The translations under genes were made by a program, and so were the position numbers. Source: an uncultured Gemmatimonadales bacterium (GTDB lineage: Bacteria; Gemmatimonadota; Gemmatimonadetes; Gemmatimonadales; GWC2-71-9). From it: DNA of 64,000 nucleotides. Positions 8,750 to 24,816 of this stretch are shown here, one piece after another. How positions within the stretch are numbered: the first letter of the stretch is position 1; each line of letters opens with the position of its first letter. The stretch is taken from NCBI GenBank assembly GCA_963730185.1, contig CAVSQW010000012.1, positions 96,001-160,000 on the forward strand, written 5' to 3'. The notes below the pieces were generated by a model. The model was not told the DNA's origin. It worked only from the letters and a program-made list of their open reading frames with translations, and searched no databases.

Positions 8750-8777
8750 ACCACACCCCGGGGGGCGGGGGTCCGAG

Positions 8778-8849
<72 letters not shown>

Positions 8850-22565: not shown

Positions 22566-22997
22566 TCAGCTCCGCGAGAGCGCCGAGTCCCGGTCCAAGC
22601 CGTACTTACGAATCTTCGCAAGCAAGGTGGAGCGGGCGATGCCGAGCAGGTGGGCCGCGTTGCGCCGGTTACCGCGCGTGTGGCGCAGCATCGCCCCGAT
22701 GTGCCGCTTCTCCACGGCCTCGAGCGACTCAGGCTGGCCGCCGGCCCCGGAGAGCACGGCCCGGAGCTGATCCCAGTCGAGGCCGGGCAAGCTCGGATCG
22801 ATCAGGACGGCATCGATGGCCGGCGACGCCAGCGCCGCGCTGGCGCCCTCAGCGGTCTCCTGGACCACGGGCTGATGTCCCTGGCTCCGGATCGCGTCCG
22901 CGAGCGATTCGATGACCGGAGCCCGGGCGCTGGCGATCAGCACGTTGAGCCGCCGGCCCGTCGTAACCTCCGGGATGGTTGAACCAATCATGAGCAT
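22566..22997 (-). CDS. Fis-type HTH protein with degenerate receiver-like N-terminus
   Basis: SLEAVEKRHI..L..TRGNRRNAAHLLGIARSTLLAKIRKYGL; IDAVLIDPSLPGLD REC remnant; no AAA+ domain. Confidence 0.85.
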   Translation of the reverse strand: MLMIGSTIPEVTTGRRLNVLIASARAPVIESLADAIRSQGHQPVVQETAEGASAALASPAIDAVLIDPSLPGLDWDQLRAVLSGAGGQPESLEAVEKRHIGAMLRHTRGNRRNAAHLLGIARSTLLAKIRKYGLDRDSALSRS

Positions 22998-23139
22998 AAT
23001 CCTCGAAGCCGGGGTGGATCGCAATGCCGGGACCCCACTGGCGCCCGGGATGTGACGAATGCTGGTCGATGTAACTTATGACGTTCGAGGCGGGGTGATC
23101 TTGTACGCGCCAGGTTGAGCGTCAGGATTCTAGACTGAC

Positions 23140-23186
23140 AAAAAAGTGAACGGCCGCACAGGCTTGTGACCTGTCGCGGCCGCTCA
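23140..23186 (-). terminator. Intrinsic terminator
   Basis: Minus strand TGAGCGGCCGCGACAGG-tcacaag-CCTGTGCGGCCGTTCA-C-TTTTTT: long GC stem with a G-U pair, followed by U6. Confidence 0.85.
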
Positions 23187-23570
23187 GCGGACGGACTACC
23201 CGAAGTCGGGGCTTTCACCGCCGTTCTTCTTCCTGCCGCCGCCTCGAAGCTGATCCGCTCCGGAGGTAGGGCACAGGAGCTTCGGGATTCGATTCCCAGG
23301 CCGGAGGGCCTCCCCCACCTGGTTCATCCATCCCGGCGCTGCGAGTCGGATCGGGTCGCGGACCGACCCTTCGCACTGCACCCCGAGGCGCCAGATCGGG
23401 GCGGGTGAAGCACGCGACCGGCTTCACCAACTCGACCGGAGTGATCACCGGGATCGACGGTCCCCCCACGAACGGGTTCGACTGGGGTCCCTCCCCCGAC
23501 TGTTCGATCGAGCCGCATCTCGCGGTTCGCGTCGTGGCCGGAAAGCCACGACCCTGCCACGCGACGCCCT
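23140..23570 (-). ncRNA. Candidate large structured non-coding RNA (~430 nt), family not recognised
   Basis: Promoter upstream, terminator downstream, at least 9 consecutive hairpins with minus-strand G-U pairs, no credible ORF. Confidence 0.6.
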
Positions 23571-23573
23571 TCC

Positions 23574-23601
23574 AAGCTAGGGGCTTCCGAAAACTCCGCA
23601 A
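23574..23601 (-). promoter_or_regulatory. Sigma70-like promoter for the candidate ncRNA
   Basis: TTGCGG (23601-23596), 16-nt spacer, TAGCTT (23579-23574). Confidence 0.55.
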
Positions 23602-23703
23602 GCGCCTTTGTTTCTTCGGGTTACGTCATTCGATGTGCTTCGGTCAGGAGCCCGGAATGACCCCGCCGACACGGGCTTACGACGCTTCACCACGCCGTGT
23701 GGA

Positions 23704-23719
23704 AATGTGTATCCACATT
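23704..23719. promoter_or_regulatory. Palindromic putative transcription-factor site
   Basis: AATGTG-tatc-CACATT, an AT-rich perfect inverted repeat in a GC-rich background. Confidence 0.45.
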
Positions 23720-23776: not shown

Positions 23777-24391
23777 TCAGCTCTCGAGGCCGACTTCGAC
23801 GTACCGGTAGGACGCTTCCTCGTCCTTCGGGGCGAAGAGCGCACCCGCCGCCGTGGCGGCGAACCACCCTCCCACCCAGGGCCGGGGCGCATCGAGCTGC
23901 TCGACGATCGCCCGAAACCATCGGTGGATGTGCCGCACCTCCGGCGCCCGTCGTCCCAGCAAGGCCAGCAGGGCCCCAGCCCCGGAAGTGGCCCGAAGGA
24001 AGTGCGCCAGGGCATGGGCTCGCTGCGAAAACTCGACCGCCTTGACCCCCGGCTCGTCGAACAGCACCCGGCCCTCGAAAACATCCATCGGCGGGGCGTC
24101 GAGCCGGGGACCGAGATAGACGTAGTTCCGACCCTCCGGCGTCCGCCGCTCCACGACCGCCGCAGCCGTCTCGCTGGTGAGGCGAACCGCCTGCACCATG
24201 TCCTCGTCCTGGAGGATCCCCACGGCCTGGGTCCACTCCAGCGCCGCCAGGGCGGTCTCGATCGGGCAGCCCGTCGCGTCGTCGAAGGCGATCAATCGGG
24301 GGGCCTCGCCCGCCCGGAGCAGAAAATGGGACAGCCCCTCGGCTCGGTCCAGAAAGGTGCGAACGGCGAGGCTCCCAGGGGTCGGTGTCAT
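23777..24391 (-). CDS. Hypothetical protein (204 aa)
   Basis: Protein-like ORF with GC3-biased codons; internal repeat-like segments (RAEGLSHFLLRA / RAHALAHFLRA). Confidence 0.75.
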   Translation of the reverse strand: MTPTPGSLAVRTFLDRAEGLSHFLLRAGEAPRLIAFDDATGCPIETALAALEWTQAVGILQDEDMVQAVRLTSETAAAVVERRTPEGRNYVYLGPRLDAPPMDVFEGRVLFDEPGVKAVEFSQRAHALAHFLRATSGAGALLALLGRRAPEVRHIHRWFRAIVEQLDAPRPWVGGWFAATAAGALFAPKDEEASYRYVEVGLES

Positions 24392-24481: not shown

Positions 24482-24606
24482 GAAGCGAGCAAGCCTTTCC
24501 GTCTGAGCCCAAGCGCCCGCACCCGCGCGGCCAATCCGGCCCGGAGTCAGGTGTACTCCGGCCACGTTTCGAGCCCCTGGCTCCAACTCTGACGAGGTCG
24601 ACTGTG

Positions 24607-24816
24607 ATGGCCAAAGGCACCGTCAAGTGGTTCAACGATGCAAAGGGATTCGGCTTCATCTCTCAGGACGGCGGCAAGGACGTCTTCGTCCATCACACCG
24701 CGATCATGATGGACGGCTTTCGCTCCCTCGCCGAGGGCGACCAAGTGGAGTTCGAGGTGGTGGATGGTCCCAAGGGCGGGCAGGCGTCGCACGTCAAGCG
24801 ACTGCAGCTGAACTGA
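24607..24816 (+). CDS. cspA: Cold-shock protein
   Basis: [24 protein letters not shown] (RNP1 and RNP2). Confidence 0.97.

Follow-up and report, generated by a model that had tools for sequence, protein, structure and literature searches.

A conserved structured RNA gene beside DnaA-type boxes in two families of Gemmatimonadales

The window analysed here, a stretch of 64,000 nucleotides from an uncultured Gemmatimonadales bacterium (contig CAVSQW010000012.1, positions 96,001 to 160,000; assembly GCA_963730185.1), contains a 780-bp gap bounded by a gene for a 204-aa protein of no known family (23777-24391, minus strand) and a gene for a Fis-type HTH protein (22566-23024, minus strand; PF02954). 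The latter is a neighbour and not part of the element. On the minus strand of the gap lies what is almost certainly an undescribed, stand-alone gene for a structured non-coding RNA of roughly 380 nt. We place the gene at 23144-23567, with the 5′ end predicted from the promoter and the 3′ end taken from one RNA contig. Its promoter consists of a -35 element, TTGCGG (23596-23601, minus strand), in which TTGC is invariant in homologues, and a -10 element, TAGCTT (23574-23579, minus strand), separated by a 16-bp spacer. Homologues mostly have TATATT or TATCTT at the -10 position. A conserved AT-rich element, possibly UP-element-like or IHF-like, runs into the -35 box (23598-23623, minus strand). 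The gene ends in an intrinsic terminator (23140-23185, minus strand), a 15-pair hairpin followed by U6. Simple promoter and terminator scans of the locus picked up neither site. Both had been read from the sequence in an initial annotation, the strings of which are all present at about the positions it gave, and both are backed by comparison. The AT-rich/-35 motif occurs at 63/64 homologous loci, in 53 of those 63 with an A2/T6 hexamer and the 16-bp spacer, and terminator hairpins with differing arms come after the RNA in homologues.

Parts of the stretch were found in 20 of 21 listed RNA runs from 16 studies, none of which contains half of its sequence words. In the four runs for which contigs were compared base by base, metatranscriptome contigs together span 23144-23539, including one over 23189-23519 with 3 differences (99% identity) and one over 23206-23539 with 8 differences (about 98% identity). 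Another contig, of 63 nt, is identical to 23144-23182 and then runs on, on the minus strand, as a tail of 24 A. This points to the minus strand as the transcribed one and to a 3′ end inside the U-run of the terminator, an end that is defined by this single contig, the A tail of which may stem from the library. The contigs are assembled, from libraries that may include DNA; they give neither an expression level nor a 5′ end. Contig depth was not used for ranking expression, runs outside these four with small shares of the stretch were not drawn on, and the absence of RNA contigs on the flanking genes was not counted as evidence. The transcript originally proposed, from ~23567 to ~23140, is therefore covered over most of its length and at its downstream end, and its upstream end is a prediction.

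The minus strand, already favoured as the RNA strand, also folds better than the plus strand (z of -3.47, with 0/100 shuffles as good, or -2.89 without the terminator; plus strand, z of -2.01). Because z was as low as -3.25 in one of ten control stretches of the window, folding energy counts for little by itself and the case for an RNA gene rests on comparison.

Covarying homologues were recovered from related genomes, where the initial annotation had suggested looking for them. By BLAST, the element was detected in 34/36 genomes of the window's family, 5/12 of its sister family and 0/12 of a third family of Gemmatimonadales. A covariance model of the core matched 71/72, 2/2 and 0/31 genomes of these families, respectively, and 0/45 genomes of nine other families; a broader model matched 13/13, 13/14 and 0/14. 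The two genomes of the window's family that BLAST missed contain short copies of the RNA. One genome of the window's family (G119) and one of the sister family (G058) gave no model match, possibly because of assembly gaps. The bacterium's own genome has a single copy and some other genomes have two or three; presence is vertical and mostly single-copy in the two families. Among named pattern matches, 78/80 belong to Gemmatimonadota, and none of those from outside the phylum (2/80 and 3/80 named rows) was confirmed. A loose core pattern returned chance matches only (0/80 loci confirmed by covariance model), model R2 had 0 matches in 40 genomes, mostly of other phyla, in a search run without a positive control, and phage and plasmid collections gave no match. 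In IMG/VR, one contig of a tombus-like RNA virus has ~110-150 nt of the RNA family at its end (L331:3095-3248, 63 bits) and is probably an assembly chimera with cellular RNA.

The RNA belongs to no known family at the Rfam gathering cut-off, either in the window or at 33 further loci. A search of the whole window against Rfam 15 returned only a tRNA-Cys (8777-8849, minus strand), a search of the gap at E values up to 10 returned only four chance matches, and no match on the RNA came from 18 homologue loci or from another 15, of which 14 hold divergent copies. The early judgement that this is not RNase P, tmRNA or SRP RNA also holds in that RNase P was located elsewhere in the genome (contig C9), as were a short SRP-type match and tmRNA (both on contig C15). 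Ro60 (TROVE, PF05731) was not found in the genome, which is 82% complete; this argues against a Y RNA. No published description was found in a literature search that covered subscription journals thinly, and supplements of raiA and motif surveys may list the RNA unnamed. Literature linking DnaA to such an RNA was not present among the matches listed.

The alternatives that the RNA serves the Fis-HTH gene as an attenuating leader, or that the region codes for protein (a 128-aa ORF at 23215-23601), are hardly tenable. A codon heuristic was used to pick downstream ORFs, which it did for 40 of 55 loci; a same-strand Fis-HTH gene, in favour of a leader, is found in 10 of the 40, but 16 of the 40 are convergent genes identified by Pfam (9 HD-domain, 7 other) and the rest are varied or unassigned. 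We did not see a gene of constant kind downstream on the same strand, or an anti-terminator, which argues against any riboswitch or attenuator leader. The frame of the 128-aa ORF is open in only 15/54 homologues and has no Pfam match, and variability by codon position (0.14, 0.14, 0.09) has no third-position excess, in line with the original view that the gap is non-coding. Convergent HD-domain genes 3′ of the RNA occur, for example, at L012, L015, L026 and L038; the one at L026 also has an OB-fold match, and is presumably a YhaM-like exoribonuclease. At one locus, RtcB is encoded downstream of the RNA.

The core of the fold (23335-23428, minus strand) comprises hairpins A (23428-23404), B (23403-23379) and C (23375-23340) and two pseudoknots. 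PK1 is a kissing loop of 6 bp between loop A (23418-23413) and loop C (23360-23355). PK2, of 5 bp, joins loop B (23392-23388) to the strand after C (23339-23335). Alignment rows were drawn from 30 BLAST loci, with short forms and near duplicates left out; genomes G035 (L020) and G102 (L041) enter alignments and tallies as single rows, and no claim hinges on either. In a plain MAFFT alignment of 27 core sequences (26 distinct), 98.6% of cells are paired and 18/39 pairs are compensatory, values matched by 0/500 shuffles, with slid controls at 34-44%. The shuffle control ignores relatedness, so shuffle fractions here and below are not probabilities. With paralogues included, in a model-fitted alignment (n = 52), 97.2% of cells are paired and 24/39 pairs are compensatory. 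In the latter alignment PK1 is 96.5% paired, with G-C to A-U and C-G swaps, and PK2 is 100% paired, with three compensatory pairs. The junction bases of the core are near-invariant.

Covariation extends to about 105 pairs in total. Domain 2 (23430-23513, minus strand) has a closing stem (23513-23505/23438-23430), a kink-turn (GA at 23493-23492, bulge at 23458-23456, GA at 23455-23454) and a small hairpin; 90.4% of cells are paired and 20/26 pairs are compensatory, with 0/500 shuffles as high (n = 18 sequences), on a structure that RNAalifold derived from the alignment on which it was scored. The kink-turn pattern occurs in 37/48 full-length copies versus 9% in shuffles, and the window's own kink-turn misses the strict pattern by one G.A pair in the canonical stem. 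The 3′ domain (23189-23333, minus strand) is built of P6 (23333-23326/23196-23189), P7, P8 (23286-23280/23205-23199), P9 (23278-23231), a purine linker and P10, arranged in two three-way junctions (86.9% paired, 33/42 pairs compensatory, 0/500 shuffles as high, n = 23 sequences). Domain 1 (23515-23567, minus strand) is a variable 5′ hairpin with no consensus structure in the alignment, and is deleted in several homologues (L008, L011, L019, L022, L027). A tRNA-like T-loop at 23295-23284 is not conserved.

The detailed fold in the initial annotation is about half wrong. Its hairpins at 23404-23428 and CCCCGA/TCGGGG (23403-23379), its TGCGA/TCGCA stem and its CCAGG/CCTGG helix are all supported by covariation. 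Its CGAAC/GTTCG and TCGA-CCGG/CCGG-TCGA helices (56% of cells paired, 157/500 shuffles as high) and CGAAGCT/AGCTTCG (50% paired, 136/500 shuffles as high) did not survive comparison. The ACGG/CCGT junction has a pair probability of 0, its strands belonging to other covarying helices, and the GGGTCG/CGACCC register is replaced by one that leaves CGCGAC free for the kissing loop. The pairing of UCCUGUGCC with GGCGGCAGGA, put forward as a possible pseudoknot, is real, but it forms a nested helix and the true pseudoknots lie elsewhere. Neither of these two was in that annotation, and the kink-turn, the DnaA-type box array and the link to the protein gene upstream were missing from it as well.

Upstream of the promoter, DnaA-type boxes occupy fixed positions. 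Box a, GTATCCACA (23709-23717, plus strand), has 1 mismatch to TTWTNCACA and lies at -116 from the -35 element; its position is constant across homologues, and the same 9-mer occurs in the putative oriC at C15:291.7 kb. Box b, ATTTCCACA (23698-23706, minus strand), lies at -105, and its TCCACA hexamer is ~90% conserved among 117 unique upstream regions. The family consensus has five box positions, -116, -105, -93, -52 and -41, of which the last three (boxes c, d and e; 23633-23694) are worn to degenerate remains in this copy. Across the 117 regions, relaxed DnaA-type boxes average 2.5 per region versus 0.08 in shuffles. Elsewhere in the 5.27-Mb genome, the a/b pair pattern turns up just once. 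Box 9-mers recur in the oriC-like cluster on contig C15; at dnaA, a perfect box overlaps the promoter. The DnaA encoded by this genome has R..PRQ and DHSTVIH in domain IV, which we take to be the usual signature. Judged from these sequence features, the upstream boxes are probably DnaA sites.

With up to 3 mismatches allowed, the AT-rich element is single-copy in the genome. The match to the IHF consensus is perfect in 22/117 regions and has 4 mismatches in 54. At sister-family loci, the whole cassette (array, promoter, RNA and terminator) is inverted as a unit relative to the 204-aa gene, which it still adjoins (6/6 loci), and thus the boxes are part of the RNA gene. Box b has TCGACA in place of TCCACA in that family, so another regulator is possible. 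A search of 41 third-family genomes did not detect the promoter element; it detected the box pair in only 2/41, with no RNA match beside it.

Natural deletions have produced copies without domain 1, without domains 1-2, or with the core only. The shortest, of ~120 nt, have lost PK1 and most of hairpin C and retain hairpin B, PK2, DnaA-type boxes, promoter and terminator. Hairpin B with PK2 is therefore the minimal RNA element. Box arrangement differs in one group of paralogues, and another group has a different promoter and no boxes; 14/24 copies that lack the AT-rich motif have no box. Box-less paralogues with the other promoter type retain nearly the full fold, and thus the RNA has a role independent of the DNA sites. 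Seven paralogues (L189, L190, L194, L198, L199, L201, L202) have TTCA repeats, a TAG-containing -10 region and no DnaA boxes, and the regulation of box-less paralogues may have been reassigned. Four others (L186, L187, L192, L195) lack domains 1-2 and have TGTG-type boxes in a different row directly before the -35 element.

The 204-aa protein adjoins the RNA and has the same distribution (71/72 genomes of the window's family, 2/2 of the sister family and 1/31, a weak match, of the third family), and is thus a candidate partner. A profile of the protein matched 31/31 genomes of the window's family and 0/120 others. Its gene lies within about 1 kb of the core in 67/83 locus rows, in some of them duplicated; rows without it nearby are mostly paralogues or short loci. 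The protein remains intact where the RNA is cut down. It is acidic (pI 5.2-5.8), may contain an internal repeat (56% probability), and has no Pfam, NCBIfam or PDB match of weight and no usable match in the ESM Atlas. The family is narrow, with 126 clusters at 50% identity, mostly fragments, and its named relatives are Gemmatimonadota. Many genomes of the window's family have, between the 204-aa gene and the boxes, another gene with a product that looks secreted. This protein of 150-200 aa, with a signal-peptide-like start, is conserved (L005, L012, L037, L052) and absent from the window's locus. In some members of the genus, a cold-shock-type protein gene (24604-24816, minus strand, in the window) immediately precedes the 204-aa gene.

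In design, the RNA is closest to the raiA motif RNA (RF03072), yet it fails raiA membership. Common to the two are a stand-alone bacterial RNA, a compact two-pseudoknot core and optional peripheral stems (PMC12968392). Each has a 6-bp loop pseudoknot (here PK1) and a second pseudoknot (here of 5 bp), in different topologies. A hairpin, GCCAGUCGC, with a loop forming a 6-bp pseudoknot is also shared (L207). In raiA, a P1 helix with GU and GGU bulges closes the 5′ and 3′ ends, whereas here P1 is absent, the domains stand in series, and the 5′ and 3′ domains are deleted independently in homologues. The partner of PK1 lies in a hairpin loop here and in a linker in raiA. The two RNAs also occur in different phyla, and DnaA goes unmentioned in the available part of the raiA genetics paper. 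RF03072 had no match to this locus in the genome at E values up to 10. With RF03072, two true raiA genes reach 149 and 133 bits; model R1 gives them at most 7.4 bits on the sense strand. Neither model scores the other family above background, and kinship with raiA, tested on these two genes, was rejected beyond one shared 9-mer.

OLE RNA, of about 600 nt and paired with oapA, is likewise a large ornate RNA with a kink-turn and an adjoining protein gene. Unlike it, the RNA described here is ~380 nt, has no Rfam match, and neighbours a gene for a small acidic protein without a family match. GOLLD, ROOL and HEARO share with it a multi-domain build, several pseudoknots and self-complementary loops (PMC12286853). 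They differ in that this RNA has no Rfam match, is absent from the phage and plasmid collections, and adjoins neither a tRNA island nor an IsrB gene.

Given what the comparisons and RNA contigs show (conservation, the fold with both pseudoknots, the 3′ end, no tie to the gene downstream and a fixed box array), we tentatively favour a DnaA-gated, trans-acting RNA that serves as a protein-binding scaffold (probability about 0.4). DnaA bound to the upstream array would switch the promoter and so tie RNA output to the replication cycle. Hairpin B with PK2 would form the binding platform, braced by the kissing loop between A and C, and the adjacent 204-aa protein would be the specific partner. The genome encodes an L7Ae-family protein, which might hold the kink-turn by analogy with the OLE kink-turn, reported to bind OapC in the title of a reference cited by PMC12286853. 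Several observations weigh against a scaffold: the 204-aa protein is acidic with no RNA-binding fold on record, the adjacency and co-distribution of its gene may reflect shared descent only, and some lineages lose most domains and PK1 yet retain boxes, promoter and terminator, as would fit a role for the DNA. The sister family's form of box b counts against gating by DnaA. A further step, that the RNA and the adjacent protein feed back on replication initiation or growth state as a new class of DnaA-controlled ribonucleoprotein, is speculative and on balance unlikely.

The main rival of the DnaA-gated RNA is a datA/DARS-like site, at which DnaA binding to the DNA, with a bending-protein site alongside, is the primary function, transcription from the overlapping promoter gates protein binding, and the fold is secondary. 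Like E. coli datA, DARS1 and DARS2, the locus has clustered DnaA boxes away from the origin, some of them opposed, near an IHF-type site; the combination of DnaA boxes with an IHF site is described for datA and DARS2 (PMC10380432). Its oppositely oriented boxes keep a fixed spacing beside the IHF-like site. Boxes, AT-rich element, promoter and terminator persist in the ~120-nt copies, and at least 1 box occurs in 13/13 reduced copies. That this DNA cassette outlasts most of the RNA is the best argument for the rival. We nevertheless regard it as unlikely. Oppositely oriented boxes, which a tandem box accompanies in DARS, are 5 bp apart there (PMC6868365), versus 2 and 3 bp here (3 bp for the facing boxes of the family consensus). 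This copy has no perfect box, and the IHF match is partial and seldom perfect across the family. In addition, the array here heads the promoter of a conserved structured RNA, the elaborate covarying fold of which is retained in most copies, box-less paralogues included.

Three other roles for the RNA itself are less probable. The compact core, with its near-invariant junction bases, two pseudoknots and dispensable peripheral domains, could suggest a ribozyme or a small-molecule aptamer acting in trans. We consider this quite improbable: Rfam ribozymes and riboswitches give no match, in some lineages PK1 and hairpin C have decayed, and neither a constant downstream gene nor an anti-terminator was seen. 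The topology of HDV-like ribozymes includes a P3/L3 hairpin, and this is missing from the core. Slightly more doubtful is an RNA that binds RNA polymerase in place of 6S or Ms1, for which the stand-alone gene and strong-looking promoter would be appropriate, and which gains from the failure to find Rfam 6S in 41 Gemmatimonadales genomes (5/14 controls matched, and a divergent 6S is possible). 6S RNA is a long rod with a central bubble; the fold here is branched and knotted and has no RF00013 match. The third family has neither a 6S match nor this RNA, so there is no complementary pattern. We give still less credence to an RNA-only multimer assembled through palindromic loops, like OLE and GOLLD, in which palindrome swaps mark intermolecular bridges (PMC12286853). 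Of 158 copies, most have GGCC in the P7 loop; the small hairpin of domain 2 reads GUGAUCAC in 49/120, and there are rare swaps to other palindromes. Against this, about half of the domain-2 loops are non-palindromic, 15 P7 loops read GACG, the GGCC-to-GAUC swap occurs in only 2 copies, and both palindrome-bearing domains can be deleted.

Large structured RNAs are uncommon in bacteria, and the majority of those studied well have core functions. The RNA described here is uncatalogued and occurs in environmental RNA; it is nearly universal in two families of Gemmatimonadota, a phylum abundant in soil and sediment. Its natural deletion series marks a minimal core, and there is one candidate partner protein and one candidate regulator. 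If DnaA controls the RNA, replication initiation would be linked to an RNA-based output; we found no such link in print.

The locus was also considered as a replication origin and rejected, given that it has no AT-rich tract and its contig (C12) has no skew switch. A better candidate lies outside the window on contig C15 (G000:C15:291600-291910), with an AT-rich tract and, after it, about seven DnaA-type boxes plus an IHF-like site. This cluster, by its sequence, is likely the replication origin, and it lies far from dnaA, which is on contig C9.
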